Below are positions 6,263 to 63,755 of a stretch of 64,000 nt of DNA, one piece after another (position 1 is the stretch's first letter; each line of letters opens with the position of its first letter). Source of the DNA: Candidatus Omnitrophota bacterium (GTDB lineage: Bacteria > Omnitrophota > Gorgyraeia > Aquiviventales > Aquiviventaceae); NCBI GenBank assembly GCA_023247255.1, contig JAHFGV010000009.1, forward strand, positions 2,773-66,772. The letters run 5' to 3'. The notes beneath the pieces were generated by a model, which saw only the letters and a list, made by a program, of their open reading frames with translations, had not been told where the DNA came from and made no database searches. A program made the translations under genes and the position numbers.

Positions 6263-7095
6263 TGCAAATGTACGAATCCTTCTACGGTCTTAAAGAAAAG
6301 CCTTTCAGTATGACGCCGGATCCGCGGTATTTCTATCCTTCGGCTAAGCACCAGGATGCGTTAAACCATATGGTCTACGCGATCCAGGAGCGCCGCGGAT
6401 TTGTCGTCGTCACCGGGGACATCGGTTCCGGCAAAACGACCCTCTCGCGCGTTCTCTTCCAGAAGCTGGATCCGGGCACTCAGACAGCGGTCATACGCAA
6501 CACGCAACTGACGGCCAAGGATTTGGTAGCCATGACGTTAGACGAGTTGGAAATTCCGTATGCCCCCGGCAGAACGAAGATGCAATTGATCGGCCTGTTA
6601 AACGAGTTTCTCATCCAACAGCTTAAGGACAATGCCAACGTCGTGCTTTTGATTGATGAAGCACAAAATCTCAAGCCCGCAGTCTTGGAAGAGGTCCGCA
6701 TGCTTTCCAACCTAGAGACGGAGAGGGAAAAGCTCATTCAGATTATCCTCATGGGTCAGCCGGAGCTTAAATCGACTCTGTGGTTAAAGTCGCTCACGCA
6801 ATTGCGTCAGCGCATTACGCTCCATTATCACCTGGCGCCTTTGGGTCAAGCGGAGATGGCGATTTACATTGGCCATCGGCTTCATGTCGCCGGCGCCAAT
6901 GGATTACCCATCTTCCGCTGTGATACCTTCCCGCAGATCTTTCACCACACTCAAGGGGTTCCCCGTCTCATTAACGCGATATGTGATCGGGCGCTTCTGA
7001 CCGGTTACATCAACGAGACCAAGACCATCGGCTCCGACGTCATTGACGAAGTCGCGCGCGAGCTTCCAGCACTGATGGAGCAACCCACCGCATGA
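6262..7095 (+). CDS. ExeA/GspA-like AAA ATPase (XrtA/PEP-CTERM-locus associated ATPase type)
   Basis: Walker A GDIGSGKTT, Walker B VVLLIDEAQ; N-terminal MQMYESFYGLKEKPF typical of ExeA-like proteins; ATG overlaps the preceding stop. Confidence 0.75.
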   Translation: MQMYESFYGLKEKPFSMTPDPRYFYPSAKHQDALNHMVYAIQERRGFVVVTGDIGSGKTTLSRVLFQKLDPGTQTAVIRNTQLTAKDLVAMTLDELEIPYAPGRTKMQLIGLLNEFLIQQLKDNANVVLLIDEAQNLKPAVLEEVRMLSNLETEREKLIQIILMGQPELKSTLWLKSLTQLRQRITLHYHLAPLGQAEMAIYIGHRLHVAGANGLPIFRCDTFPQIFHHTQGVPRLINAICDRALLTGYINETKTIGSDVIDEVARELPALMEQPTA

Positions 7096-7137
7096 ACGTA
7101 ATAAACGTAACACGTGACATGTTCACGTAACACGTAG

Positions 7138-7477
7138 CGAGGAACAGAAAAATACCCCTGGCTATCGGAAACTCCAGGGGTGGCAAGCTGCCATCGTCTG
7201 GCACATGAGGTTTATCGAGTTACCAGAAACTTCCCCCAAGAAGAACGGTTTGGAATAGTTGCCCAATGTAAGATGGGCTGCGCTTTCTGTGCCTACACAT
7301 TTAGTTGAAGGCCATGCTCGTGCTGGAAAACGAGAGCTGAGACGGTTCGTCGCTATGGCGCTCGGTTCGTTGGCAGAAGTCGAGTATCTCTTAGAACTGG
7401 GCTTTTGCAAAAATAGCCAACGCGTTGACCGAGTGTTGTGTCATTTCCCAAGAGAAGGTAATGAGGATTGTGTCATG
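7138..7477 (+). pseudogene. four-helix-bundle protein (23S rRNA intervening-sequence protein family) pseudogene: no start codon, frameshift near 7265, 3' end interrupted by MITE
   Basis: Frame A (7138-7255) reads ...SETPGVASCHRLAHEVYRVTRNFPQEERFGIVAQ. A second frame (7259-) reads VRWAALSVPTHLVEGHARAGKRELRRFVAMALGSLAEVEYLLELGF. Together these align to the intact paralogue at 9570-9932 (…NTIYKLTSTFPKEESYGLISQMRRAAVSVPVNIAEGYARNHRAELRQFLYVALGSLAELETL). Confidence 0.5.
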
Positions 7478-7586
7478 TTTCATGAGTCATGTGTCATGAA
7501 AAAAGCAGAAAATAAACAGGCATATCAAGCACGGCCAAAGTACGCCTTTTGCTTTCCATGACACATAACACATGACTCATGAAACA
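7469..7586. repeat. MITE-like hairpin repeat, copy 1 (arms built from CATGACACA/TGTGTCATG units around a ~58-bp core)
   Basis: Left arm tgtgtcatgtttcatgagtcatgtgtcatg, right arm catgacacataacacatgactcatgaaaca; core near-identical (1-2 mismatches) to reverse complement of 61338-61396. Confidence 0.55.
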
Positions 7587-7661
7587 GACGTGAGCGCTGC
7601 CACTAATCTCGATGCATTTTGCAAAACCTCTGTCACTTGTTACGTGTTACGGGAGTAACGA

Positions 7662-8582
7662 ATGAGCAAAATCACTCAGGCCCTTGAGAAGGCGGCGCGG
7701 GAGAGGCTCCAGCGCGAGAAGGAACAAGTTACAGTCGCTGCCAAGGAAACCACGATTCCCTTGGCCGCTTCGGCTCTTTCCGATATCGCCTCTGCGGGAG
7801 AGATCCAGATCGATTCCCACATTGTGGGAGCTACCGATTCGCAGTCTCCTATCGCTGAGCAATACCGCATCCTGCGCACTAATCTCCAGTCCTTGCGCTT
7901 TCAGTCGAGTCCAAAGGCCATCGTCATCACAAGCTCCGTGCATGGGGAAGGCAAGTCCGTGACTGCCCTCAATCTGGCCTTGGCTTTTTCCCGTCAAGAA
8001 AATCTCCGCGTAGTGCTCGTCGATGGGGATCTGCGCAAGGGTACGATTTGGAAATGGTTAGGTCTGCCTGAGCGTAGCGACGGTCTTGCGAGTGTGCTGC
8101 AAAGTGGCGGCCAGCTTAACGGTTCATTGGTGCGATTGCATCAGCCACCCCTGACGATTCTTCCGGCTGGTCTTGCTCCGGAACATCCTGCTGAGCTTCT
8201 GGAATCTTCCAGTATGAAGCGGCTGATTGGTACGCTGAAGGCTCAGTTCGACTTGGTTCTGATCGACTCTCCTCCTGTGCTTCCGGTTTCCGATCCCGGT
8301 ATTCTGGCCTCTCAGGTGGACGGGGTGTTGTTCGTTGTTCGAGCCGGCAGGACCCAGCGAAAGACGGTGATACAGGCCCAAAATCTCCTCAAGCAGATGA
8401 AGGCAACCTTCTTGGGTTGTGTCTTGACGCATGTGGAGTACTACCTTCCCGGCTATTACCGCTACTACCAGTATCGGTATGGCTCGAAAGAGCAGACAAG
8501 TGGCAAGGGAGTTAAAGACGGGGGCACGGGGCAAGAGACAGGGGGCGAGGGAAGACAAAAAGTACAAAGGAATACAGGTTAA
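7662..8582 (+). CDS. BY-family protein tyrosine autokinase (CpsD/CapB/Wzc cytoplasmic domain type)
   Basis: P-loop SSVHGEGKSVTALNLA, Walker B LVLIDSPPVL, C-terminal tyrosine cluster YYLPGYYRYYQYRYG. Confidence 0.8.
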   Translation: MSKITQALEKAARERLQREKEQVTVAAKETTIPLAASALSDIASAGEIQIDSHIVGATDSQSPIAEQYRILRTNLQSLRFQSSPKAIVITSSVHGEGKSVTALNLALAFSRQENLRVVLVDGDLRKGTIWKWLGLPERSDGLASVLQSGGQLNGSLVRLHQPPLTILPAGLAPEHPAELLESSSMKRLIGTLKAQFDLVLIDSPPVLPVSDPGILASQVDGVLFVVRAGRTQRKTVIQAQNLLKQMKATFLGCVLTHVEYYLPGYYRYYQYRYGSKEQTSGKGVKDGGTGQETGGEGRQKVQRNTG

Positions 8583-8752: not shown

Positions 8753-9541
8753 ATGAGAATGTTGACGTATCTACGTGAACTCTATCGCTACCGGGACCTC
8801 CTCTTCAGCCTAACGGCGCGTGACATTAAGGTGCGCTACCGCCAGACGCTGCTCGGAGTCGCATGGGCGGTTATGCAGCCTCTGGCTTTTATGTTCATCT
8901 TCACCCTGGTGTTTCAGAAATTCGGCAAGGTCAGCTCCGATGGAACCCCCTATCCCTTATTCTCTTATACGGGCCTTGTTCCGTGGACCTTTTTCTCGAC
9001 CAGCCTTGGGCTTGCCGTCAACTCGATTGCAGGCAACATGAGCCTTGTCAAGAAAGTCTATTTCCCCAAAGAGGTTTTTCCCATCGGTGTGGTTCTGGCA
9101 TGCTTCGTGGATTTCCTCATCGCCTCGAGTCTGGTAGGGGGGCTTTTAATGTTCTACCGGTTTCCGGTCAACGTGCAGATAATCTGGATTCCGTGGCTCA
9201 TCGGTCTTGAAATCGTTTTTTTGATCGGTATCAGTCTGCTTGTCTCTAGCCTGAACGTTTTCTTTCGAGACGTTAAATACATCGTTCCCCTGGCGGTGCA
9301 GCTCTTGATGTTCACCACCCCGGTTATCTATCCCACCTCGATGGTGCCTGAGCCTCTGCGGCGCTACTTTCTCCTCAATCCCATGGCTGTTGTTGTCGAT
9401 GGGGTGCGTCGTGTAGTCTTGCACGGACAACCCCCTGAGCTTGGGCCTCTCGTGCTTAGCACGGCGCTTGTCGGTCTCTTCGTTGGTCTCGCCTATGGTT
9501 ACTTCAAGCGCGTCGAAGTACGTTTTGCAGACCTCATCTAA
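8753..9541 (+). CDS. ABC-2 type polysaccharide exporter permease (Wzm-like)
   Basis: N-terminal YRYRDLLFSLTARDIKVRYRQTLLGVAWAVMQP signature of ABC-2 permeases; six predicted TM helices. Confidence 0.8.
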   Translation: MRMLTYLRELYRYRDLLFSLTARDIKVRYRQTLLGVAWAVMQPLAFMFIFTLVFQKFGKVSSDGTPYPLFSYTGLVPWTFFSTSLGLAVNSIAGNMSLVKKVYFPKEVFPIGVVLACFVDFLIASSLVGGLLMFYRFPVNVQIIWIPWLIGLEIVFLIGISLLVSSLNVFFRDVKYIVPLAVQLLMFTTPVIYPTSMVPEPLRRYFLLNPMAVVVDGVRRVVLHGQPPELGPLVLSTALVGLFVGLAYGYFKRVEVRFADLI

Positions 9542-9545
9542 AAGC

Positions 9546-9969
9546 GAGACAGGAGACAGGAGACAAGTGATGAAGCCAATTAAAAGTTACAGGGATCTTG
9601 AAACCTGGCAAGAGGGAATACGTCTTGTGAATACCATCTACAAACTTACCAGTACCTTTCCCAAAGAGGAGAGTTACGGACTCATTAGCCAGATGAGGCG
9701 TGCGGCTGTTTCTGTTCCAGTCAATATAGCGGAGGGGTATGCTCGCAACCACCGGGCGGAATTACGCCAATTCCTCTATGTTGCACTTGGGTCATTAGCT
9801 GAATTAGAAACGCTTAGCATTGTGGCTTGTCAAGTTAGTTATATTGATCAGGCCTGTCTCTCAAGAGAGCTTGAATCGTCCATAGCGGTCTTACGTTTTA
9901 AGACCTTAGCCTTCTTGCGTCATTTGAGGTAGCTTGCCATGTCTCCTGTCTCCTGTCTCCTGTCTCCTG
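9546..9969. mobile_element. hairpin-terminated insertion between wzm and wzt carrying the four-helix-bundle gene; arms are heptamer arrays (GAGACAG)x3 at 9546-9567 and (GTCTCCT)x4 at 9941-9969
   Basis: Arms are reverse complements of each other; right arm supplies the ATG and first ~10 codons (MSPVSCLLSPAP) of the downstream ABC ATPase. Confidence 0.4.
9570..9932 (+). CDS. four-helix-bundle protein (23S rRNA intervening-sequence protein family)
   Basis: MKPIKSYRDLETWQEGIRLVNTIYKLTSTFPKEESYGLISQMRRAAVSVPVNIAEGYARNHRAELRQFLYVALGSLAELETL matches family signature; track start 9441 overlaps wzm and is rejected. Confidence 0.7.
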   Translation: MKPIKSYRDLETWQEGIRLVNTIYKLTSTFPKEESYGLISQMRRAAVSVPVNIAEGYARNHRAELRQFLYVALGSLAELETLSIVACQVSYIDQACLSRELESSIAVLRFKTLAFLRHLR

Positions 9970-27147: not shown

Positions 27148-29631
27148 ATGAAGGGATCCCACTCCGAACTCCAAACTCCGAATTCCGAATCCCGAACTGG
27201 GAAACATGTCCTATATCCCAGCCTGGGTATGATCGTTTCCCAATTCCCAGAGATGCACGAGACGTTCATCATGCGGGAACTGAGCGCGTTGCGCGATGCA
27301 GGAATTCCTCTGCGTATCTATTCATTGAAACGCTGCCGCGATCCTATCGTACATCCGCAAGCGCAAAAACTTCTCGGGTTGACTCGCTATGTGGTATGGA
27401 ACGATGCCGTTGTTTGGGTACGTGCGGCCGGGTTAGTTCTCCGGCGTCCGATGCGGGCGTTCTCGATACTCGGCTGGGTGGTTCGCCATCATTCTGGGAG
27501 GGCTTTCCTTTTGGCAAAGGCGCTCGTGGTATGGGCACAGGCGATTGTAATCGCCGAGAAGATGCGCGAGGAGGGGATTACGCATATCCATGCGCATTGG
27601 GCAACGGTGCCGACGACGGCGGCTGTGATCGCTTCCGATTGGCTGGGTATTCCCTTTAGCTTCACGGCGCACGCGTGGGATATCTTTGTTCGGAATCCAT
27701 CCCTGAAAGAGAAGATACGACTTTCAGCTAGGGTGATGACCTGCACGGATTACAACCGGCGGTTTCTCCAGCACTTGTGTCCGGGAGAGCGAGAGAAGAT
27801 CATCGTGAACTATCACGGCGTGGACCTCGGGAAGTTTCAACAACTACAACAAGAGACAAGAAACAGGGGACAGGGGACATGTTTTGTGTCTCCTATCTCC
27901 CGTCTCCCGTCTCCCGTCTCCTGTCCCGTTTTTCTATCGGTGGGTCGGCTCGTTGAGACCAAAGGCTATCCTGTTCTTTTGGAAGCCTACCGACGGCTGA
28001 AGTCGGAGGGCATGGCGTTTCACGCGGTGATCGTTGGGGAAGGTTGCCTGCGTGATAGGCTGGAACATCAGATTCGTGTGAACCATCTGGCCGATGTCGT
28101 CGAGTTGAGAAACGCGATGGGGCAGGAGGCACTACGCAAGCTCTATCGGGATGCCTTCGCCTTTGTCCTGCCTTGCACCGTTGCTGAAGACGGGGACCGC
28201 GATGGGATTCCGAATGTCATTCTCGAGGCCATGGCTTGTAGTTTGCCGATAGTCTCGACACAGATCTCGGGAATCCCAGAAGCCGTGCAGGATCGCCGCA
28301 GCGGATTGTTGGTTCCACCCAACGATGGGGAAGAGCTCGCTCGCGCCTTGAAACTTTTGCTGCAGCGGCCGAGTTTTGCCCGTGTATTGGGTGACCACGG
28401 GCGAATGTGGGCGGAGTGTACGTTTGACGCCCGCGAGCATATGCAACAACTCGTGGTTCGGATGAGGGGGTTGTTAGAGAAATCTGTTAGACCCGTTAAC
28501 GTCATGTACGTCATTTGGTCGCTGGAGGTCGGTGGGGCAGAGCGTGTTGTGATGACGCTCGCCAGTGGCCTGGACCGTAAGCGGTTTTCTCCGATCGTGG
28601 TGTGTCTCAATCAGGAAGGACGTATGGCGGCCATGCTTAAACAGCAAGGGATTACTGTGATTGCCCTGAACAAGCGTCCGGGAGTCGATTTGGGGATGCT
28701 GGTGCGTCTGGCGTGGTTGATGAGGCAGCATGGCGTGCAAGTTGTGCACGCGCATCTATGGGGAGCGAATCTGTGGGCGCGTATCGCTGCCATGATGGCA
28801 AGGGTACCGGTCGTCATTGTCCACGAACACGGGATGCAGCCTTGGCGAGGAACCTGGCATTTCCGAATCGACCGTTGGCTGGGACGAAGAACGAGCCGGA
28901 TTCTCTTTGCATCCTCGGAAGTCATGCAGAAGTATGGTGCAAAGACGGGGATGGCACAAAGGCGTTGCCTGTGGGTTCCCAATGGAATCGACGGGAGGCC
29001 GCAAGGATTGGATCGTACCCGTTTGCGAGCACGATTGGGTTTTTCCGATGAAGATCGCGTCGTGATCAGTGTCGGCCGACTCTCACCAGAGAAAGGGCAT
29101 GAAGATTTGTTGCTTGCCTTCGCTCAACTGAGGCAACAGGTGCCTCAGGCGCGTTTGGTATTGGTAGGAGACGGGATAGAGCGAGACACGCTCCAGGCGC
29201 TTCAAGCACGCTGTGGACTTAACGGTGAAGTGACCTTCGCGGGAGTGCAGGACGACGTGCGTCCGTGGCTCGCTGCTGCCGACGTCTACGTTCAGCCTTC
29301 GAGGCGGGAAGGTTTGTCACTGGCCGTTCTTGAGGCGATGGCCTTCGGGCTTCCCGTCATCGCGACCCATGTAGGGGATACGGCACGTGTCATTACCGAT
29401 GGAATGACAGGATACCTAGTGCCTGCTCAGCAACCGGAGGTCTTATCGGCTAAGCTCAAGCAGGTTCTCGATCAACGGGATCAGCAAGGAACTTTAGTAG
29501 AGGCGGCCCGCGCGCTTGTGCAGCGTGATTACTCCGAGCGCCAGATGGTGGGGATAGTGGAGAGGGTTTACGAGGAAGAACTCGTCAAAGAAACAATAAT
29601 TAGCACACAGCAATTAGTACACAGCACATAG
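27148..29631 (+). CDS. tandem GT4–GT4 glycosyltransferase (WbdA-like architecture)
   Basis: Two complete GT4 modules: DGIPNVILEAMACSLPIVSTQISGIPEAV (res ~350) and REGLSLAVLEAMAFGLPVIATHVGDTARVI (res ~720). Confidence 0.8.
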   Translation: MKGSHSELQTPNSESRTGKHVLYPSLGMIVSQFPEMHETFIMRELSALRDAGIPLRIYSLKRCRDPIVHPQAQKLLGLTRYVVWNDAVVWVRAAGLVLRRPMRAFSILGWVVRHHSGRAFLLAKALVVWAQAIVIAEKMREEGITHIHAHWATVPTTAAVIASDWLGIPFSFTAHAWDIFVRNPSLKEKIRLSARVMTCTDYNRRFLQHLCPGEREKIIVNYHGVDLGKFQQLQQETRNRGQGTCFVSPISRLPSPVSCPVFLSVGRLVETKGYPVLLEAYRRLKSEGMAFHAVIVGEGCLRDRLEHQIRVNHLADVVELRNAMGQEALRKLYRDAFAFVLPCTVAEDGDRDGIPNVILEAMACSLPIVSTQISGIPEAVQDRRSGLLVPPNDGEELARALKLLLQRPSFARVLGDHGRMWAECTFDAREHMQQLVVRMRGLLEKSVRPVNVMYVIWSLEVGGAERVVMTLASGLDRKRFSPIVVCLNQEGRMAAMLKQQGITVIALNKRPGVDLGMLVRLAWLMRQHGVQVVHAHLWGANLWARIAAMMARVPVVIVHEHGMQPWRGTWHFRIDRWLGRRTSRILFASSEVMQKYGAKTGMAQRRCLWVPNGIDGRPQGLDRTRLRARLGFSDEDRVVISVGRLSPEKGHEDLLLAFAQLRQQVPQARLVLVGDGIERDTLQALQARCGLNGEVTFAGVQDDVRPWLAAADVYVQPSRREGLSLAVLEAMAFGLPVIATHVGDTARVITDGMTGYLVPAQQPEVLSAKLKQVLDQRDQQGTLVEAARALVQRDYSERQMVGIVERVYEEELVKETIISTQQLVHST
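27853..27927. repeat. 75-bp hairpin repeat inserted in frame inside the GT4–GT4 gene (arms gagacaagaaacaggggacaggggaca / tctcctatctcccgtctcccgtctcccgtctcctgtccc)
   Basis: Self-complementary arms around tgttttgtg loop; encodes RNRGQGTCFVSPISRLPSPVSCP linker; same GACAGG/CCTGTC heptamer family as 9546-9969. Confidence 0.5.
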
Positions 29632-29634
29632 CAT

Positions 29635-31128
29635 ATGGCAGACCGCAAACCGAAAACTGCTTCCCAGCCACGTAGGCACGTAGGCACGGATGCACGACGT
29701 GTCTCCTCTGCCTTGTCTGCTCTCCCACGTTTCAAGCGTAAGGTTGTCATGGGGCTGAGCTTATTGCTCATCATCGGTTACGTGGCTAAGCTCGTCGATA
29801 CGCGCTATCCCTGGCTGTGGGCTTACCTGCTGGATCAGATCAGACCTCAGACGGTGCAAGCATCCGCAGGCCCGACCCACGTCCTGTTCACTTTCGTCGA
29901 CCATTTTGAACCGCACGACCAAGCGACCATGGATCGGTGGATGAGCGCTTATCCCCAGATGGCTGCGCGCCATCGCGATGCCGATGGACGTTTTCCGCAA
30001 CACTCGTGGTTTTGGCATTTCAGCTATGCCGATGGATTCGAGACCTTGTCGTACCTGAAGCAGCTGGCCGAGCTTTCTTATCAAGGATTCGGAGAGGTGG
30101 AGCTGCACCTGCACCATGGGCCCGATTCCGAAGAGAGCTTTTTAGAGCTCATGCGCAAGCGCCTGCAACTTTCACGATGGACGGGTTCGATGGTGACGGC
30201 CGAGACAAGGCCACAGACGCATTTTGGATTCATTCACGGATTATGGGCGCTGGACAATTCACGCGGGGGTAAGACCTGCGGTGTCAATAATGAGTTGACG
30301 CTGCTGGCACGTTTAGGCTGCTATGCGGATTTTACGCACCCCTCATGGGGGCCTATGCATCCGCGGATGGTCAATCGGCTTTACTACGCGACGGACGATC
30401 CGATGCGTCCTAAGTCCTATGACCGAGGTCCGGTCATGCAGGTGGGACGCTTACCTATCGGGGACCTGCTCATTTTCGAAGGGCCCAGTGTGGTGCGCTT
30501 GCGCGGTATCAAACCCGTCTATGACCATGGGGATGTGACGCAGGTAGATCTTCCGACCTCCGAGCGCGTCGATGCCTGGGTGCGAACCGGTATTCACGTC
30601 GAGGGACGTCCCGAGTGGGTTTTTATCAAAGTCTACACGCATGGGGCCATTGCGCGAGACCATGAGGCAGTCCTAGGACGCTGGAGCGACCGGATGCATG
30701 AATACCTGGAAGGTCATTACAACGATGGTGAGCGTTACGTCCTGCACTACGTCACGGCCCGCGAGGCCTACAACATCGCCAAGGCTGCGGAGGTGGGTAA
30801 ATCTGGGGATCCCAATGCGTTCCGTGATTTCGTTATCCCTCCCTACGCGAACCGGACCCTCATAGCCTCCGTACCCTATGAGCTCATCAGCGCTGACGAA
30901 GAGAAGTTGTGGGTGCGGTTGCTGACGCCACCCAGCAGTCGTGTAAGTATGCGATTGCATGCGCGCGTCGTTGACGTTTCTGGCGATGCGTCTGACATCG
31001 TGATTGAGCCCACGGATGAAGATACAGGGCTTACTCTCGCCACGACAGGAGAAGGAATCGTAACGTTTGAGTATGAGAGAAGAGGTATCAATCAGCAAGT
31101 AGCACATAGAGCAGATGGTACAAGATGA
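29635..31128 (+). CDS. hypothetical membrane-anchored protein (alternative start 29749)
   Basis: Single TM (MGLSLLLIIGYVAKLV) then large soluble domain with His-rich motifs (ELHLHHG); the region 29635-29748 overlaps a repeat so the true start may be the ATG at 29749. Confidence 0.5.
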   Translation: MADRKPKTASQPRRHVGTDARRVSSALSALPRFKRKVVMGLSLLLIIGYVAKLVDTRYPWLWAYLLDQIRPQTVQASAGPTHVLFTFVDHFEPHDQATMDRWMSAYPQMAARHRDADGRFPQHSWFWHFSYADGFETLSYLKQLAELSYQGFGEVELHLHHGPDSEESFLELMRKRLQLSRWTGSMVTAETRPQTHFGFIHGLWALDNSRGGKTCGVNNELTLLARLGCYADFTHPSWGPMHPRMVNRLYYATDDPMRPKSYDRGPVMQVGRLPIGDLLIFEGPSVVRLRGIKPVYDHGDVTQVDLPTSERVDAWVRTGIHVEGRPEWVFIKVYTHGAIARDHEAVLGRWSDRMHEYLEGHYNDGERYVLHYVTAREAYNIAKAAEVGKSGDPNAFRDFVIPPYANRTLIASVPYELISADEEKLWVRLLTPPSSRVSMRLHARVVDVSGDASDIVIEPTDEDTGLTLATTGEGIVTFEYERRGINQQVAHRADGTR

Positions 31129-32303
31129 ACCGAGCGACGAGCGACGAGCAACGAACCACGTCCCCCGCACCTTGCCCCATAAAGGTGGTCTACGTGATTG
31201 ACGATTTGGGCCTGGGAGGGGCGCAGAGGCAACTGACCGAGCTCGTTAGGGCGATCGACCGCAGCCGGTATCAGCCTTACGTGGTGAGTCTTTCAACCCA
31301 GCGCTTGGCTTACGCTAAGAATATTCGTGAGCTTGAGATTCCCTTGACGCTGATTGAGCATGAAGGGATATGGTCTTGGCGAACCCTTTGGCAGATCCTT
31401 CGCTTGCTGCAAAGGGTGCGGCCTACCGTCGTGCACACGTGGCTTTTCACCGCCGATCTCTATGGACGCCTGGCGGCTTGGCTGACGCGCGTGCCGGTGA
31501 TCGTCAGTGCCGTCCGCAGCGTGGATCCTTGGAAGCCGAGACATTACATTTTTGCGGATCGGCTCTTGTGCAATGTGACGAGCGCTTTTACTGTCAATGC
31601 GCAGGCTATCGGCGAGGTGCTTCGTAAGCGAGAGGGCGTTGAGCCCTCCAAACTCCATACGATCTATAACGGGGTGGATCTTTCGGCGTTCGATCCTTCG
31701 ATTCAGGATGGAGCGCTCCGGCGTCATCTTGGACTGGATAGAGTCGTTCGGCTTGTGGGTATCGTCGGACGTCTGGCTCCGGAGAAGGATCATCAGACGT
31801 TTCTGCACTCCGCAAGGTTGGTGGTAGAGCGTCATCCGGATGTTCGTTTCCTCATCGTCGGCAATGGTCCGCTGCGATCCGAGCTCGATGCGATGATCCG
31901 CAAGCTGAAACTACAGGCTCATGTCCACATGCTGGAGAGTCAGCAGCCGATCACTCCGATCTTCGCCGCCCTCGATATGGTTGTCGTCAGCTCGCGCTAC
32001 GAAGGCTGCTGCAACGTCATTCTAGAGGCTATGGCGATGGGCAAGCCCGTTATCGCCACAGACGTAGGAGGAAATCCGGAGTTGGTGAGTCACGAAGAAA
32101 CGGGATTTTTGATTCCGCCCGGGGAGCCCCAAGCGATGGCTGAGGCTATCGAGCGACTCTTGCAGCAGCGCTCTCGCGCGCAGTACTTCGGGCAGCAGGC
32201 GCGGCGTATCGTAGAGTCCCGGTTTAATCTGAAGCGCATGATCGATCAGACGATGGCTTTGTATGACGCACTGCTATGTCGTGTTGGCCCGTTAACGCGT
32301 TAG
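31125..32303 (+). CDS. glycosyltransferase family 4
   Basis: VVYVIDDLGLGGAQRQ N-terminus and EGCCNVILEAMAMGKPVIATDVGGNPELV C-terminal GT4 motif. Confidence 0.8.
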   Translation: MNRATSDEQRTTSPAPCPIKVVYVIDDLGLGGAQRQLTELVRAIDRSRYQPYVVSLSTQRLAYAKNIRELEIPLTLIEHEGIWSWRTLWQILRLLQRVRPTVVHTWLFTADLYGRLAAWLTRVPVIVSAVRSVDPWKPRHYIFADRLLCNVTSAFTVNAQAIGEVLRKREGVEPSKLHTIYNGVDLSAFDPSIQDGALRRHLGLDRVVRLVGIVGRLAPEKDHQTFLHSARLVVERHPDVRFLIVGNGPLRSELDAMIRKLKLQAHVHMLESQQPITPIFAALDMVVVSSRYEGCCNVILEAMAMGKPVIATDVGGNPELVSHEETGFLIPPGEPQAMAEAIERLLQQRSRAQYFGQQARRIVESRFNLKRMIDQTMALYDALLCRVGPLTR

Positions 32304-32429: not shown

Positions 32430-34730
32430 GTGATGCAACGATATGTGCCGACGATTCTCGTCTTGGTGATAGGTATGAGTTTGGGGTATGGCGTCGCAGC
32501 ATCGGGAGGGCCTGTGCAGGCGTTGCTTCGTCCCATGAAGGCCCTTTCGCATTTGATATCAAGCCCCGGTGATGCGTTGAAGGAGGGGTTAAAACCGCAA
32601 CCCCCATCCTCTTCTGCTTCTGCGAAAAACGCGGTCTTCTGGTTAAGCAGTTTTGAGTCTTCGGAAGAGATCGATAGACGTTGGAAGACTCGCAGTGTCG
32701 TAGCCAAGGTAGATAAACTCCATGCCAGCCATGGACTCTCCGCCGCGCGGTTGACCTATCAGATGGCTACGGCTCCCGCTTTTATGATGGAGAACTACCT
32801 GGATAGTGGACACGGCGATTGGCGGGGCTATGAAGCCCTGGAGTTTGATCTCACCAACGCAAATCCCAGCCAGGAGCGGATGATCCTAAAACTGAAAGAT
32901 CAGGATGGCCGCGGCTACAGCGAGGATATCTTCGTCAATTCAGGCGCATCGCAACATATCCGCGTGCGTCTGGAAGACGTTCAGGGTTACCTCGATCTTT
33001 CGCACGTCATCCAACTCAACCTGTTTCGATGGAAACCGCGCAAGGAGGCGACGTTTTATCTGGATGCCGTGTGCCTGACTCCCGCTGCACAGAGAATACC
33101 CGAATCGGATACGACGGGCTCATCGGGTTCATCAGTGATTCCCGTCTCTGCGGCTGTGACTCCGCAGGAGTCTTGGCAAGTGAAGTGGGTTTCGGGTCTG
33201 ACGAAGGTGTTTCGCGATCCCGCGCTTTTGGAGCAGGCGGCAACACCACCTCTTCGTCTAGCGCTCTCCAAGGGGGAATACGAGAGTGTACAAATCCTTG
33301 TCATTGGAGGAGAGCAGCCCGTTCAAGTGAAAGTTTCCGTTGGGCCACTCACGCATAGCGATGGACAGACCCAGTTTCCCAATGGCGTCGTCGAGATCCG
33401 TCGAGTCGATTACGTAACGACGAAGCAGCCTTACTATCCCGTAACCTTCGTCGGGGATTGGCCGGATCCCTTGCCGAGTGCGGATACGATCGACGTCCCC
33501 GCCGGTCAGGTTCAGCCTATCTGGATCACGGTGGGTGCGCCGACGCACCTTGTGGCCGGTCAATACAACGCGACCATCACCCTCCGCGGTTCGGATGGCC
33601 GTATCGAGCAAATGGAGCTGATCGTCACGCTATGGGACTTCACCCTTCCCCGGACAGCAAGTCTTAAGACAGCTTTTGATTTCTATCCCTCGCGACTCAG
33701 AAAGACCTATCAGGAGTTCGTTCTAGGCGGATCCGTTTGGGAGACTCGCTTAGAAGAATTGCAGCGGCTCTATTACTTGGATATGCTTAAGCACCGCGTT
33801 TCTCCCATTCTGCAAGCGGATCCTTCCAATGCTCGGTTCCAGCAAGAGATTGCCGAATATCTTAACCGTGGACTGAGCGCATTAGGAATTGGCTCCAGAG
33901 GAGGCAGCAACGGCAACAATTGGCCGAAGGATCCTGGGCAACTGGAGCAGGTCATGAGCTGGTATCGCAAGGCGGCTGAGTCCTTGCGTTTTCAACAGCT
34001 ATTGGATTTAGCCTACGTCTATACCTATGATGAGCCTCAGCCCGGAGATCCGAAGGTTGCGCGGGTGATGGCAGCGATTCACCAAGTCGATCCGGCGCTT
34101 AAGAATCTTCTGGTGATGCACTATGCCCCGGATCCTGTGCAGCATGCGGATTGGCTTAAGGATGCCGACATCATTTGCTTGCGTATCGCAAGCTTTGATC
34201 CTGCACAGGCACAGCAGCTCAAAGGGATGGGTAAGGAAGTGTGGATGTACGTCTCATCACCGGCGCATCCTTTTCCGGCGCTTGTCATTGATTATCCGGC
34301 CATCGCCCATCGTATTCTGCCGTGGATGGCCTGGAAGTATGGGGCGACAGGACTGCTCTATTGGTGCGTCGACTTCTGGAACGGAGATCCTTGGCAGGAT
34401 CCGGCAAACTTCAGCAAAGATCAGAACGGAAACGGTGCCTTGTACTACCCCAGCGCCGAAGGGCCGGTACCTTCGATCCGCATGGAGGCTTTGAGGGATG
34501 GCATTGAAGACTATGAATATCTCACTCTCTTGAATACGCTCTTAGAAAGTGCGAAAGGCATGGAGGATTCTGATCCGACTCTATTCGAGCAGGGACGCAA
34601 GCTCGTAGGCGTTGGATCGGATATCGTGGATTCCCTGCGCAGCTACAGCAAGGATCCCGAAAGGCTGTTGGCTTATCGAAAGGCCGTTGCCGAGACGATT
34701 GAGAAACTACAAAGAGTGTTAGCCCGTTAG
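32430..34730 (+). CDS. secreted large hypothetical protein, DUF4091-like/glycoside-hydrolase-like C-terminal region (possible EPS-modifying hydrolase)
   Basis: Signal peptide MMQRYVPTILVLVIGMSLGYGVAAS; C-terminal WMYVSS...LLYWCVDFWNGDPWQDP...ALYYPSAEGPVPSIRMEALRDGIEDYEYL pattern. Confidence 0.45.
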   Translation: MMQRYVPTILVLVIGMSLGYGVAASGGPVQALLRPMKALSHLISSPGDALKEGLKPQPPSSSASAKNAVFWLSSFESSEEIDRRWKTRSVVAKVDKLHASHGLSAARLTYQMATAPAFMMENYLDSGHGDWRGYEALEFDLTNANPSQERMILKLKDQDGRGYSEDIFVNSGASQHIRVRLEDVQGYLDLSHVIQLNLFRWKPRKEATFYLDAVCLTPAAQRIPESDTTGSSGSSVIPVSAAVTPQESWQVKWVSGLTKVFRDPALLEQAATPPLRLALSKGEYESVQILVIGGEQPVQVKVSVGPLTHSDGQTQFPNGVVEIRRVDYVTTKQPYYPVTFVGDWPDPLPSADTIDVPAGQVQPIWITVGAPTHLVAGQYNATITLRGSDGRIEQMELIVTLWDFTLPRTASLKTAFDFYPSRLRKTYQEFVLGGSVWETRLEELQRLYYLDMLKHRVSPILQADPSNARFQQEIAEYLNRGLSALGIGSRGGSNGNNWPKDPGQLEQVMSWYRKAAESLRFQQLLDLAYVYTYDEPQPGDPKVARVMAAIHQVDPALKNLLVMHYAPDPVQHADWLKDADIICLRIASFDPAQAQQLKGMGKEVWMYVSSPAHPFPALVIDYPAIAHRILPWMAWKYGATGLLYWCVDFWNGDPWQDPANFSKDQNGNGALYYPSAEGPVPSIRMEALRDGIEDYEYLTLLNTLLESAKGMEDSDPTLFEQGRKLVGVGSDIVDSLRSYSKDPERLLAYRKAVAETIEKLQRVLAR

Positions 34731-34790
34731 CGCGTTTGCGAATTGGCGGGTTTGCGGGTTTAGGATTTTAACGCACCAACGCGCTAGCCA

Positions 34791-44193: not shown

Positions 44194-45214
44194 ACTCGTA
44201 AGAACTACTTGCGCGTTAGCCAGTTTGCGAACTGAGCGTTTTCCACTTACCAACCCGCAAACCCGCAAACTCACAAACCTGCCAACTCGCAAACCCGCCA
44301 ACCCACTCACTTACTTCGCCCTTCTATGTATCCCATTGCTTATCTCAGGATGCAGCTCATCCTACCAAGGGGAACGGTTATTCTGGCATGCCCAGCGTCT
44401 GGCTATTCCCATTCTCAAGAATCCGACTGACGTGACTGCGGGTCAGCTTTCCAAAGCCGTGGCAGCGTTTCAGAAAGTGGTGAAACACACGCCGGATACG
44501 ATTTGGGCTGCTCGGGCGCATGCCGCGATAGGATCTCTTTATGTGACTCAACGCGAGTTTGACAAAGCGCGGGAAGCCTATTTCTTAGTTCTCGAGAATT
44601 ATCACCAGCACCGAGCGCTGGTTCTGGCGTGTCGTGTGTCTATTGCCAAGACCTATGAAATGGAGAAAGACTGGGAAAAAGCCGTCAAGGTATATGAGGA
44701 AATTCCTGACCAACACCCTTGGACCCAAATGGGTTTAGAAACGCCGCTTTATATCGCCAAGACCTATGCCGAGCGCAAGGAATCGGATAAGGCCACCCGG
44801 GCTTATGAGCGCGCCATCCGCCGATACCTAAGACTGATCCCGACAGCTCCCAGTCGTCAAAAGGAGTTGCAAGTAAAAGGGTACCTGGCGAGCGCCTATC
44901 TAAATGTGGGCGAAGGGCAACAGGCTATTGATCTTTTCGAGGAACTTCTGGCAGACGGAAAGAATATTTCTGTGAATCGTCCTGTTATCCTGCTGATGAT
45001 GGGCAGGATTTACGAGATTAAGTTACATAACCGCGAAAAGGCGAATCAAGCTTATGCCACACTGATCGCTGAGTTTCCAGATCATGCATTAGCCGCGGTA
45101 GCCAAACGTCAACTGGAGCAAAACGGTTATTCTTCCGAACAACCTGCTTCTGTTACCGGCTTGGGTCCTATGGTTCCTCAAGTTCCGCAGCCAGGGGCGT
45201 CTGCAGCACCCTGA
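44111..45214 (+). CDS. TPR-repeat lipoprotein (PrsT-like but short); true start probably downstream of track start
   Basis: Lipobox LLISGC-SSS; TPR-like helical repeats (AHAAIGSLYVTQREFDKAREAYF..., KAVKVYEEI...); the track N-terminus is translated from CCGCAAAC tandem repeats and is unlikely to be real. Confidence 0.55.
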   Translation: MPVLMRSPCQALLPPHRVISKRMLWLRELVRTTCALASLRTERFPLTNPQTRKLTNLPTRKPANPLTYFALLCIPLLISGCSSSYQGERLFWHAQRLAIPILKNPTDVTAGQLSKAVAAFQKVVKHTPDTIWAARAHAAIGSLYVTQREFDKAREAYFLVLENYHQHRALVLACRVSIAKTYEMEKDWEKAVKVYEEIPDQHPWTQMGLETPLYIAKTYAERKESDKATRAYERAIRRYLRLIPTAPSRQKELQVKGYLASAYLNVGEGQQAIDLFEELLADGKNISVNRPVILLMMGRIYEIKLHNREKANQAYATLIAEFPDHALAAVAKRQLEQNGYSSEQPASVTGLGPMVPQVPQPGASAAP

Positions 45215-52190: not shown

Positions 52191-52421
52191 TTTGCGAGAA
52201 TCCAGTTAAAGGGTGCAAAGGGATAACGGACGGATGTGGAGAAAAGAATAAGCATAGCATGTTTGATGCCAACTGGCAACAAAAAATCCGATTCAAAATA
52301 ATCGTTATTAGACCTTGACAGCGAGGGTGAGTTAAGGGTATAGTTTTGCCACTATTGTGGCAGGAAGTGGAAGGAAGTGGTTTCCCACTTCAGAGGAAGT
52401 GGGGGAGGTTAGTGTTGTGTC

Positions 52422-52859
52422 ATGTTTTATGGAGAGTACGCACACACCATTGATCGCAAGGGCCGCATCATTGTGCCGGCCAAGTTTCGGCAAGTGCTGA
52501 AAGAGCAGCAGATTCATTCCTTGTTCATCACGCGTGGCTTGGATGGATGTCTTTTTCTGTTTCCGGAAGCAGAATGGCGCATCGCTGAGAATCGATTCAA
52601 GCAGATCCCTTTTACCAAAGGGGAAGGGCGCAAGTTTACCCGGCTTCTGTTTTCCGGTGCGATGGAGGTGACCATCGATTCCCTCGGGCGGCTCCATGTG
52701 CCCAAGACCCTGAAGGAGTTTGCCGGGATCAAACAAGATGTGGTGGTCGTCGGAGTTTCCAACCGAATGGAAGTTTGGTCGAAAGAGAATTGGCAGGTGT
52801 TTTACGAAAGCTCGCGACAGAGCTTTGAAGAAGTCGCTGAGCGCGTGATGGTGGAGTAA
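52422..52859 (+). CDS. mraZ: transcriptional regulator MraZ
   Basis: MFYGEYAHTIDRKGRIIVPAKFRQ start and duplicated MraZ domain. Confidence 0.85.
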   Translation: MFYGEYAHTIDRKGRIIVPAKFRQVLKEQQIHSLFITRGLDGCLFLFPEAEWRIAENRFKQIPFTKGEGRKFTRLLFSGAMEVTIDSLGRLHVPKTLKEFAGIKQDVVVVGVSNRMEVWSKENWQVFYESSRQSFEEVAERVMVE

Positions 52860-52900
52860 TCAGAAATCAGAACTCAGGGTGTGGTAGTTCTCAACCCCGG

Positions 52901-59869: not shown

Positions 59870-61302
59870 CGGTTGCTGTTGCGCTCTCAGGATCGGTCCA
59901 TACGCTGGAGGGTTGGGCGTCTCAGAAATCTGTGTCTGATGTGTTTGGAGATAGCTGGGCCGGACGTCGAGTCACCGTCTTGGGGTTGGCCAGAAGTGGC
60001 GTTGCTGCGGCTGAGTTGCTTTGTCGAATCGGTTGTCGGGTGGGGCTTTCGGAGCTTCGGGATACGCCGGCCACACGCTCGGCGCAGGCGATACTGCGAG
60101 AACGAGGCATAGAGGTTGTAGAACTCGGGGGGCACTCTCGAGAGCTCATTACCGCATCGGATCTCGTGGTGGTCAGCCCTGGGATTTCGGAGACTGCCGA
60201 GCCTGTTGTGTGGGCCCGTGAGCTGGGATTGCCGGTCTTAAGCGAGATTGAGCTGGCCTTTCATTTCTGTCCGGTACCAGTCGTCGCTGTCACCGGCACT
60301 AACGGAAAGAGTACCGTGGTGACGCTCATTGCCGAAGTTCTGCGCAGTTGTGGCAGGCAAGCGATCGCCTGCGGCAACTTAGGCCTTCCTTTTTCAGCCG
60401 TGATCGGACGATTCGGTCCCAAGGGTATTGCAGTGGTAGAGGTTAGTTCTTTTCAGCTTCTTCATTGTGAGCGCTTTCGACCCCGTATTGGAGTCCTGTT
60501 AAATCTGGGTACCAACCACCTTGACCGCCATCCGAATTGGCAAACCTATTGTGAAGCCAAACGGCGGCTGTTCCAAGCGCAAACCCAAAAGGATTGGGCG
60601 GTGCTCAACGGGACCGATACCTCGGTCGTGGCGTTGGGTGAGGGACTGCTCGCTCAGCGCGTGTGGTTCGGTCAGAATCGGTCCAATGGCCCCGATTGGT
60701 TTCTGAGTCCCAAGACCCAGGCCAGTTTATCTGAGACGGCACAGGCGGTCCTTCAGGTGGCGCGGATTCTCGATATCCCGGATCCGTTGACCTGGCAGGT
60801 GATTCGTTCGTTTCGGGGATTGGAACATCGATTGGAGCCTGTGGCGACGATCCGCGGGATTCGATTCATCAACGATTCTAAATCGACCACACCGGAAAGC
60901 CTGCTGTATGCCTTGAAACGTCTTTCCGGGGAACTGGTGTTGATCATCGGAGGAAGGGACAAGGGTTTAAACTTCCAGCCGTTGATTGCCGCGCTTAAAG
61001 AGCCGCGCATCAAGGGACTGGTGTTGATCGGAGAATCCCGTCGCAGACTTCGTCAGTTACTGGATGAGGCTCTCCTCGCTGAGTTTGTCTCTCATGGTCG
61101 ATCCGTTGGCGCATCCTCTCGTTCTGTTTGGCAAGTGCGCGAATGCGACTCGTTGGAACAGGCCCTTGAGGCTGCGATTTCTCTGGCTCATCCGGGGACC
61201 ACGGTGCTGTTTTCTCCCGCGTGCGCCAGCTTTGACATGTTCCAGGATTTCGAACAACGAGGCCAGCGTTTCAAGGCAATCGTGCAGAAGCTGGTGTCAT
61301 GA
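59866..61302 (+). CDS. murD: UDP-N-acetylmuramoylalanine–D-glutamate ligase
   Basis: VVAVTGTNGKSTV P-loop, N-terminal Rossmann VTVLGLARSG. Confidence 0.85.
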   Translation: MTVAVALSGSVHTLEGWASQKSVSDVFGDSWAGRRVTVLGLARSGVAAAELLCRIGCRVGLSELRDTPATRSAQAILRERGIEVVELGGHSRELITASDLVVVSPGISETAEPVVWARELGLPVLSEIELAFHFCPVPVVAVTGTNGKSTVVTLIAEVLRSCGRQAIACGNLGLPFSAVIGRFGPKGIAVVEVSSFQLLHCERFRPRIGVLLNLGTNHLDRHPNWQTYCEAKRRLFQAQTQKDWAVLNGTDTSVVALGEGLLAQRVWFGQNRSNGPDWFLSPKTQASLSETAQAVLQVARILDIPDPLTWQVIRSFRGLEHRLEPVATIRGIRFINDSKSTTPESLLYALKRLSGELVLIIGGRDKGLNFQPLIAALKEPRIKGLVLIGESRRRLRQLLDEALLAEFVSHGRSVGASSRSVWQVRECDSLEQALEAAISLAHPGTTVLFSPACASFDMFQDFEQRGQRFKAIVQKLVS

Positions 61303-61450
61303 AAGACTGTTTCATGTTTCATGTGTCATGAGTCATGGAAAGCAAAAGGCGTACTTTGGCCGTGCTTGAGATGCCTGTTTATTTTCTGCTTTTTTCATGA
61401 CACATGAACCATGACACAGCCCTTATTACTTCTCTTGGAACATGACACAA
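61297..61450. repeat. MITE-like hairpin repeat, copy 2 (inverted relative to copy 1), occupying the whole murD–ftsW spacer
   Basis: 61338-61396 equals reverse complement of 7501-7560 with 1-2 mismatches; flanking TGTGTCATG/CATGACACA arrays; murD stop lies in the first unit. Confidence 0.55.
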
Positions 61451-61457
61451 CACTGAT

Positions 61458-62573
61458 ATGACCCCACGACAGTTGCGCCGGATTTTTCTGATGATCGTCT
61501 TTACCCTCCTCGGGCTAGGGATCATCGAGGTCTATTCCGCAACGTCCTTGATGTCCCACATGGCGTATGGAGATAGCTTGTGGTTTGTCAAACGTCATCT
61601 TGCGGCGATTGTGGTGGGATTGAGTCTGGGATTGGGATGTCTGATGGTTCCTTATCCTGCAGTGCGCGGCCAGGCTCGTTGGCTATTTTTGATTAGCCTT
61701 GTGCTTTTGTTTTTAGCTTTCGTGTGGGGGCAAGAGATCGGTGGTGCAAGACGCTGGCTGCGCCTGGGACGGTTGAGCTTTCAACCCTCTGAGTTTGCAC
61801 AATTGTCCGTAGTGATCTACTTGGCGGATCTGCTTGCGCGGACCCGGGGAAAGATTCGACAGGGTTGGCAGGGGCTTTGGGCTCCCCTTTTGGTGAGCGG
61901 CCTTGTGGCTGGCGTTATTCTTCTGCAACCGGATTTGGGAACAGCGGTGGCCATCGGATCGATTGCCTTGCTGTTGTTGTGGATGGCAAAGGCTCGCTGG
62001 TCAGACCTGGTGTGTGTCAGCGTCATCGCTTTAGTGGCTGTTGGAATACTCATAGCCGGCGAGGAATACCGGCGAAGGAGAATCTTTGCGTTTCTTGATC
62101 CTTGGAAAGATCCGCAGGGCAGTGGCTACCAGATCTTGCAATCTTATTTCGCGCTAGCCTCGGGAGGGTGGTTGGGACAAGGCCTGGGGGGATCGTCGCA
62201 GAAGCTTTTTTATCTGCCCAGCGCGCATACGGATTTTATCTTCGCCATGGTTGGGGAGGAGCTGGGATGGCTGGGCACGACTGCTGTTTTGGCACTGCTG
62301 GCTTTGTTGTTGAGTTGCGGATTTCGAATCGCCTTGTCGCTCCAGAATTGGTTTAGCAAATATCTCGTGTGCGGATTGGTGGGGATGATGGGGCTTGAGG
62401 CGATGATCAACATCGCTGTGGTTACCGGCTTGATGCCCACCAAAGGTCTACCCCTGCCCCTGGTTTCCTATGGCGGCAGTGCCATGGTGGTCAATCTCAT
62501 CGCTTGTGCGCTCATCCTGCACGCTAGTCGTCATGATCAACGATACACGCTTGAAAGTGCTCTTGGTCGCTGA
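61458..62573 (+). CDS. ftsW: peptidoglycan glycosyltransferase/lipid II flippase FtsW (SEDS family)
   Basis: 10-TM SEDS protein; HTDFIFAMVGEELG and PTKGLPLPLVSYGGS motifs. Confidence 0.85.
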   Translation: MTPRQLRRIFLMIVFTLLGLGIIEVYSATSLMSHMAYGDSLWFVKRHLAAIVVGLSLGLGCLMVPYPAVRGQARWLFLISLVLLFLAFVWGQEIGGARRWLRLGRLSFQPSEFAQLSVVIYLADLLARTRGKIRQGWQGLWAPLLVSGLVAGVILLQPDLGTAVAIGSIALLLLWMAKARWSDLVCVSVIALVAVGILIAGEEYRRRRIFAFLDPWKDPQGSGYQILQSYFALASGGWLGQGLGGSSQKLFYLPSAHTDFIFAMVGEELGWLGTTAVLALLALLLSCGFRIALSLQNWFSKYLVCGLVGMMGLEAMINIAVVTGLMPTKGLPLPLVSYGGSAMVVNLIACALILHASRHDQRYTLESALGR

Positions 62574-63714: not shown

Positions 63715-63755
63715 TAATCAGAGACATTGTCGATTGACGATTTTCGATTTTGAAA

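Follow-up and report, generated by a model that had tools for sequence, protein, structure and literature searches.

A tandem-heptamer-armed palindromic element at the murD–ftsW junction of an Omnitrophota bacterium and its likeness to rRNA intervening sequences

Few bacterial operons are as conserved as the dcw cluster, and in relatives of the bacterium considered here two of its genes, murD and ftsW, are translationally coupled by an overlap of 4 nucleotides (nt). In a Candidatus Omnitrophota bacterium, these two genes are separated by 155 nt of structured DNA, and the question that this locus raises is what this DNA is, how it came to reside at such a junction and what it could do to the operon mRNA. 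The locus was analyzed within a stretch of 64 000 nt (contig JAHFGV010000009.1 of assembly GCA_023247255.1, positions 2773 to 66 772; hereinafter ‘the window'), to which the coordinates below refer unless another locus is named. An original prediction, made from the sequence alone, described the murD–ftsW spacer as an inverted second copy of a miniature inverted-repeat transposable element (MITE) and offered three functional ideas, namely, an internal attenuator, an RNA-processing site or a promoter. The element is indeed repeated, and one of its copies is nested in another element, a cassette with tandem-heptamer arms and a gene of the 23S rRNA intervening sequence (IVS) protein family. The explanation that we favor, and consider probable, is that of an IVS-like palindromic insertion without an open reading frame (ORF), located at the murD/ftsW overlap and predicted to be either a substrate of RNase III or a protective hairpin.

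Two inverted copies of one element

The segment at 61307–61454 of the forward strand (copy B, 148 nt, starting with CT and ending with CT) is the reverse complement of 7432–7587 (copy A, 156 nt, on the reverse strand), as found by both local alignment and blastn. The two copies are ∼54 kb apart, and the element, which is non-coding, spans 144–156 nt. The identity between the copies is 87.8% over 156 alignment columns, or ∼92% when gap columns are left out, and the gaps are one of 7 nt, exactly one heptamer unit, and one of 1 nt. The inverted second copy between murD and ftsW was, accordingly, placed correctly, and its identity lies above the ∼70% below which the original prediction would have regarded its by-eye alignment as wrong. 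The 58-nt core (61338–61395 compared with 7499–7556) is identical in 57 of 58 positions; the near-perfect match that had been seen in the core is real, with a single mismatch, although the coordinates given for it in copy A (7501–7560) were off by ∼3–4 nt. The similarity had also been held to be far above background, which agrees with the presence in both copies of an exact 33-mer of the core that is contained in none of 100 dinucleotide shuffles. The heptamer pattern TCATGNNTCATGNNTCATG has 12 matches compared with 0.22 expected, all of them within the two copies.

An assembly artefact was considered as the source of the repeat and ruled out because an independent assembly in ENA (L121) is identical over 12.5 kb, without a mismatch. 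In a second read set, SRR14366787, a Logan contig (L122) ends at 61378, precisely where a 31-mer common to copies A and B diverges, which indicates that both copies exist in those reads too.

Searches for further copies were negative. A 20-mer from the core has 0 matches in the GTDB representative genomes and three in the JGI metagenomes, all of which are chance matches inside an unrelated coding region; the core used as a concatenated six-frame peptide query retrieved nothing among 5.8 billion proteins; and blastn with the core and tail found nothing in 127 kb of relatives' loci.

Insertion at an ancestral overlap

The Pfam assignments give the gene order murF-mraY-murD-element-ftsW-murG, so that the location within the dcw cluster is confirmed on both sides. 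The murD stop codon, TGA at 61300–61302, lies inside TGTCATGA (61295–61302), as predicted for the first tgtcatga unit. The ftsW gene (61458–62573, forward strand, 371 amino acids) begins with ATGACC, which is conserved in relatives, and its ATG at 61458 lies 3 nt beyond the shared segment and 10 nt beyond CATGACAC, so that the 8 nt estimated originally between the last unit and ftsW was an approximation. This start is supported by homologs of 371 amino acids that align over the full length and have the N-terminus MTP[RK]; among the FtsW homologs, which bear the name Candidatus Omnitrophica, the nearest other proteins are only 65–68% identical, and the public ftsW call (P0001, 360 amino acids) begins 11 codons late, at 61491.

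The tetranucleotide ATGA is found at both ends of the 155-nt spacer (61299–61302 and 61458–61461), and when the two copies are joined in silico, the resulting GGTGTC-ATGA-CCCC is the same GTCATGAC junction as in one of the relatives (L125). The mraY/murD junction in the window keeps its ATGA overlap. The murD/ftsW junction was compared across six related lineages, and the element is absent from it in all six. The ATGA overlap is present without an insert in L125/L126; it is present also in L127/L128 and in L133, where two further heptamer hairpins, different from the element and from each other, lie just upstream and are translated as a C-terminal tail of MurD; in L134, murD and ftsW are 1 nt apart; and in the closest relative (L123), an additional ORF of 334 amino acids lies between the two genes. 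Given that the junction is spacer-free in four relatives, with the ATGA overlap or, in one of them, a gap of 1 nt, copy B is an insertion at the ancestral overlap of the murD stop with the ftsW start (..GTC ATGA CC..), and it is because of this insertion that the overlap was abolished. The element does fill the murD–ftsW spacer, as had been proposed, in a place where relatives have a 4-nt overlap or a 1-nt gap, and the ATG of ftsW is now separated from the murD stop by 155 nt and has no recognizable Shine-Dalgarno sequence in front of it.

The hairpins of the relatives are located at the extreme 3′ end of murD, at 9960–9990 of L127 (TGAACCT-type) and at ∼1441–1500 of L133 (four CATTCCC units), and the murD/ftsW junction is a recurrent site for heptamer arrays. 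The 334-amino acid ORF of L123 (8992–9996; 68% FtsW identity in this lineage) has no Pfam match, overlaps murD by 4 nt and stops 4 nt short of ftsW.

Anatomy and predicted fold

Along the forward strand, the TGA of murD is followed by AAGA, CTG, four heptamers and the core, and then by three inverted heptamers, a 24-nt spacer, CATGACACAACACT, GAT and the ATG of ftsW. Each arm is a tandem array of heptamers, and the two arrays are inverted relative to each other (NNTCATG and CATGANN). The left arm (61310–61337) consists of the units TTTCATG, TTTCATG, TGTCATG and AGTCATG, and the right arm (61396–61416) of CATGACA, CATGAAC and CATGACA, with four units in copy A; the core between them forms a 7-bp inner helix and, at the apex, a hairpin. 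The one-sided 24-nt spacer CAGCCCTTATTACTTCTCTTGGAA (61417–61440) is the most diverged part between the copies, and the terminal unit CATGACACAACACT (61441–61454) has AGTGTTGTGTCATG(TT) as its reverse complement, the form in which it recurs alone, as a 16-mer, at the mraZ start (52411–52426).

In-silico folding, suggested originally as a check, yields the long stem that the arms had led one to expect. The transcribed strand of copy B has a predicted folding energy of −59.4 kcal/mol (z −5.5), and the two strands of copy A fold with −52.7 and −60.4 kcal/mol. The main stem of copy B pairs 61307–61332 with 61394–61419 over 24 bp, with two single-nt interruptions. An outer 8-bp helix is contributed by murD itself, the last codons of which (..GTG TCA TGA, 61294–61302, forward strand) provide the strand GTGTCATG (61294–61301) that pairs with the terminal unit at 61441–61448, and in the predicted hairpin, the stop of murD and the start of ftsW come to lie together at the base. 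At one arm position, a G:C pair in one copy is replaced by T:A in the other, and this single compensated change weakly supports selection on pairing.

All six frames of the element contain stops, and the sole ORF common to both copies has 21 codons (MKKAENKQA[Y/S]QARPKYAFCFP). This ORF is open in copies A and B, lacks a Shine-Dalgarno sequence in copy B, and the single core substitution is non-synonymous in it. Rfam produced no match to the element either at the gathering threshold or at E≤1. Scans for sigma-70 promoters and intrinsic terminators found neither in the element, so that read-through is plausible and transcription would extend across it from murD into ftsW. For the same reason, two of the three functional ideas of the original prediction, a promoter and an intrinsic attenuator, are without support, whereas the third, an RNA-processing site, appears to be the best supported of the three, by analogy with known elements.

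Heptamer arms and cassettes of the IVS-protein family

Copy A resides in a cassette (7097–7655, forward strand) that has heptamer arms of its own and contains a frameshifted PF05635/TIGR02436 pseudogene. This cassette occupies a 566-nt spacer between the genes at 6262–7095 and 7662–8582, the neighbors encoding an AAA ATPase and a tyrosine-autokinase-like protein. The arms are inverted (ACGTAAC-type at 7103–7141, GTTACGT-type at 7631–7653) and pair in a 16+5 bp stem that includes 7126–7141 and 7636–7651. The pseudogene, which corresponds to a four-helix-bundle protein (∼7138–7431; tblastn E-value 1e-17; TIGR02436 77 bits), is interrupted in its 3′ part by copy A, that is, one element is nested in another.

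A sister cassette at 9546–9969 (forward strand) is organized in the same way, with (GAGACAG)x3, the gene at 9570–9932 and (TGTCTCC)x4. The gene is intact and encodes a protein of 120 amino acids (PF05635 E-value 2e-32, also recognized by TIGR02436), and the arms form a 19-bp stem. The cassette is an insertion that separates the ABC transporter genes wzm (8753–9541) and wzt, and the wzm-wzt site is filled also in two other Omnitrophota populations, with proteins that are 71% (L129/L130) and 96% (ERZ27296333) identical. The right arm of the sister cassette extends Wzt in frame at its N-terminus, by a peptide that is similar in both cases (MSPVSCLLSPAPCPITF vs MTPVPRPLSPVPCPITF). A scan of viral contigs with the four-helix-bundle protein detected no relatives.

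The window contains 6 exact arrays of period 7 compared with 0.03 expected, and period 7 is the sole strongly over-represented tandem period, other periods being near expectation (for period 8, 2 arrays compared with 0). Heptamer arrays adjoin all 10 distinct PF05635 genes examined, 2 in the window and 8 elsewhere, from Omnitrophota, Nitrospirota and Bacteroidota; at most of these genes, the arrays are inverted pairs on both sides, and the cassette arms form stems of ∼20 bp. The cassettes with annotated neighbors sit at operon junctions: in Omnitrophota, one lies between yggS and proC (L123) and another, with a 71% identical protein and related heptamers, at the same wzm-wzt site as the sister cassette (L129/L130), whereas in Nitrospirota, one is found between an RND adaptor and its pump (L131/L132). 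In Bacteroidota, arrays are adjacent to the PF05635 genes of L021, L033, L039, L054 and L068; in L054, they are present on both sides, apparently in direct orientation. The architecture of the murD–ftsW element, inverted arrays of tandem heptamers that pair into a long stem, is common to these cassettes, and the link of the element to them is architectural.

Several observations weigh against the interpretation of the element as a member of this class. No sequence homology was found between the element and any four-helix-bundle cassette. Just two copies are known, both in the 64-kb window, and the core has no relative wherever it was searched. Some inverted heptamer pairs flank ordinary genes, for example, rplY and a pilin gene, so that heptamer arms are not specific to IVS-protein cassettes. 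The different hairpins at the same murD/ftsW junction in L127 and L133 point in the same direction, and heptamer arrays might arise in situ rather than by insertion, but an origin in situ cannot explain the 58-nt core that is common to copies A and B. The window contains no RNase III gene; the RNase III signature motif is absent from it, although such absence is uninformative.

A scan of genomes with a heptamer-array pattern recovered >117 loci from many phyla and is too unspecific to find family members. In 117 unrelated loci obtained with the pattern, there are 334 arrays, 59 of which are in inverted pairs, and the spacing of these pairs is bimodal, with one mode at 0–60 nt (plain hairpins) and the other at 350–530 nt (gene-sized). 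Some of the gene-sized pairs enclose genes other than PF05635, such as the one around rplY. An independent gene-less example in another phylum comes from a Bacteroidetes metagenome-assembled genome (L030, JAEWBT010000107.1, 6884–7060): this ORF-less element has the same heptamer type as the murD–ftsW element, with (TTCATGT)x3, an unrelated core of ∼100 nt and seven units of CATGACA, CATGAAA or CATGACC.

Within the window, a heptamer hairpin at 27849–27925 lies in frame inside an ORF for an 827-amino acid glycosyltransferase (27148–29631); it consists of GAGACAA GAAACAG GGGACAG GGGACA, tgttttg and TGTCTCC TATCTCC CGTCTCC x3, and encodes ..QQETRNRGQGTCFVSPISRLPSPVSCP.., directly ahead of the motif GRLVETKG. 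Arrays of period 8 made of one octamer are located at 34718–34761 and 44245–44306, ∼10 kb apart and in opposite orientation (GTTTGCGG and AACCCGCA), and other short-period arrays are found at 29669–29696, 31131–31154, 52855–52877 (the mraZ-rsmH spacer) and 63726–63749 (the murG-murC spacer).

Relationship to known elements

ORF-less IVSs of ∼100–150 nt exist, for example, in Salmonella, and Correia elements are known targets of RNase III. The IVS in the 23S rRNA of Coxiella burnetii, a selfish element of 428 nt, carries an ORF for S23p, ends in inverted repeats whose 28-bp stem is cleaved by RNase III and has two to three tandem heptamers (GACAGAT) upstream of the ORF, in a number that varies among strains; how IVSs originated and move is described there as unresolved (PMC4990558). 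The 23S-rRNA-IVS protein family was still functionally uncharacterized in a 2024 survey. The murD–ftsW element resembles the rRNA IVSs, both the helix-45 IVS of Coxiella and the ORF-less ones of Salmonella, in having terminal inverted repeats and a stem in the range of 20–28 bp, its own being ∼24 bp, and shares with the Coxiella IVS the tandem heptamers with a variable number of units. The IVSs are regarded as selfish insertions that are tolerated as the host RNA still works, and the likeness to the forms that encode an IVS protein extends to the sister cassettes in the window, which carry PF05635. Unlike the rRNA IVSs, the element lies in an mRNA operon junction rather than in helix 25 or 45 of 23S rRNA, and there is no rRNA in the window; unlike the ORF-bearing IVSs, it has no ORF, the PF05635 ORFs of the window being confined to the cassettes at 9546–9969 and, as a pseudogene, 7097–7655; and it has no sequence homology to any described IVS. 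Its excision by RNase III is a prediction.

A second group of repeats shares the heptamer itself. Beggiatoaceae, cyanobacteria and Bacteroidetes have direct heptamer repeats of unknown function shortly before start codons, and the sets of the TAACTGA type are nearly all direct, with one inverted set in 170 (PMC4679880). Like these and the short tandemly repeated repetitive (STRR) sequences, the element consists of tandem 7-mers, is intergenic, lies just upstream of a start codon and is sporadic in its phylogenetic distribution, and three units are enough for a stop or start codon within the heptamer to appear in every one of the three frames. It differs from both in the inverted pairs of arrays around a unique core, in the duplication of the whole unit and in the heptamer sequence, and it does not belong to the cyanobacterial STRR family, given its unit NNTCATG and a host in Omnitrophota rather than among heterocystous cyanobacteria. 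Overall, we class the element as a variant of the palindromic intergenic elements already known, the rRNA IVSs being the nearest to it in design.

Alternative explanations

A broader version of the favored explanation, which we advance only tentatively, is that IVS elements, rather than being confined to rRNA, are one face of widespread mobile four-helix-bundle (S23p/Avd-like) cassettes with cassette-specific heptamer arms that colonize operon junctions and coding sequences. The murD–ftsW element would then be a non-autonomous, ORF-less derivative, and the four-helix-bundle protein would maintain or mobilize such cassettes, which in Omnitrophota, Nitrospirota, Bacteroidota and other groups might be tolerated as the stem is processed or looped out in RNA.

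A classical MITE, that is, a deletion derivative of an insertion sequence (IS) that is moved in trans by a transposase (of the DDE or another type) recognizing ends of the TGTGTCATG type and producing a target-site duplication (TSD) of fixed length, is unlikely. The small size, the lack of coding capacity, the inverted arms and the presence of two diverged, oppositely oriented copies at unrelated sites, one of them nested in another element, all conform to such an origin, as they do to the general appearance of MITEs and of Correia, ERIC, RUP and BOX elements, which are likewise ∼150 nt long, co-transcribed in operons and subject to nested insertion. The arms, however, consist of tandem arrays rather than unique ends, and their length differs by one whole unit from copy to copy; the inverted arrays are subterminal, with the 24-nt spacer and an extra unit outside on one side: the outer TGTGTCAT unit is paired only in copy B, by murD sequence, and the outermost unit of copy A is unpartnered. 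Both copies are flanked by CT..CT, but these dinucleotides may be part of the element, and the ATGA..ATGA that lies beyond the shared segment of copy B, at distances of 4 nt and 3 nt, is missing from copy A; no TSD common to both copies was found. Deletion of 7434–7585 together with one AG opens a frame of 118 amino acids in the interrupted pseudogene, close to the 120 of the intact gene, but one deletion in three would restore the frame by chance, and NCBIfam, a local hidden Markov model and BLAST neither recognize the resulting C-terminus nor tell the alternative C-termini apart. There is no transposase among the 10 unassigned ORFs of the window, no parent IS was found in the window, and the searches described above returned no further copies. 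Thus, the part of the MITE label that describes a repeated, non-coding element with inverted arms is retained, whereas assignment to the strict class lacks support, as no TSD is consistent between the copies, no transposase was found in the window and only two copies are known.

A further observation compatible with a mobile origin is an exact 16-nt copy of the terminal sequence of the element (AGTGTTGTGTCATGTT) that stands alone at 52411–52426, where it overlaps the mraZ start codon. The chance expectation of such an exact 16-mer in 64 kb is ∼3e-5, the 5′ untranslated regions of mraZ in relatives are unrelated to it, and it may be a solo end or the remnant of a third insertion. In the same region, the dcw promoter at 52300–52400 (TTGACA, 17 nt, TATAGT) is conserved with relatives, and downstream of it come GGAAGTGG repeats (in the window, three of them, the first two at a spacing of 10 nt), which resemble MraZ operator boxes.

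The same 16-mer, given its location beside the MraZ-box promoter, can be cited in favor of a selected cis-regulatory device of the dcw operon, either as heptamer iterons to which a regulator binds or as a structured leader, or attenuator, of ftsW, as can the position of the element directly upstream of ftsW and the stem base that brings the murD stop and the ftsW start together. We consider this improbable inasmuch as the element is missing from the junction in all the related lineages compared, copy A has the opposite orientation and lies inside a pseudogene between unrelated genes, and no terminator- or promoter-like site is present. Least probable is a repetitive extragenic palindromic (REP) sequence or bacterial interspersed mosaic element (BIME) moved by a REP-associated tyrosine (Y1) transposase (RAYT), or else a gene for a small RNA or small protein: although the element is a repeated intergenic hairpin in an operon, as are REP/BIME sequences, which can stabilize upstream mRNA, and although the 21-codon ORF is open in both copies, it is far larger than their palindromes of 20–40 nt and has no GTAG-type conserved head tetranucleotide, no RAYT is found among the window ORFs tested, a small RNA is countered by the empty Rfam search and the missing promoter and terminator, and a small protein by the missing Shine-Dalgarno sequence, the non-synonymous core substitution and the empty six-frame peptide search.

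A possible course of events and its implications

Under the favored explanation, an IVS-like insertion, there would be a class of palindromic insertions with tandem-heptamer arms, the gene-bearing members of which enclose a 23S-rRNA-IVS (four-helix-bundle, S23p) gene, and the murD–ftsW element would be an ORF-less member of this class. One copy was inserted at the ancestral murD/ftsW overlap, and a second, inverted copy entered an older four-helix-bundle cassette, in its 3′ part. As a passive passenger of the dcw transcript, the stem of ∼24 bp would be expected to serve as a substrate of RNase III, by analogy with rRNA IVSs, or else as a 3′-protective hairpin for the murD-proximal mRNA. Processing of the stem would divide the polycistronic mRNA into a murD portion and an ftsW portion and could alter the expression of ftsW. 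The 155-nt structured spacer would replace the direct termination-reinitiation coupling of the two genes, but with the stop and the start brought together at the base of the same hairpin, some coupling may persist.

A structured insert of 155 nt implies that the murD–ftsW junction, even in so conserved an operon, tolerates disruption, and the element presents a natural test case for the way in which hairpin elements reshape operon mRNA. The window ties together three poorly understood subjects: bacterial heptamer repeats, ORF-less palindromic elements and the uncharacterized 23S-rRNA-IVS protein family. If the common architecture reflects a common mechanism, how IVSs arise and move, a question unresolved since 1990, could be tested in ordinary mRNA contexts.

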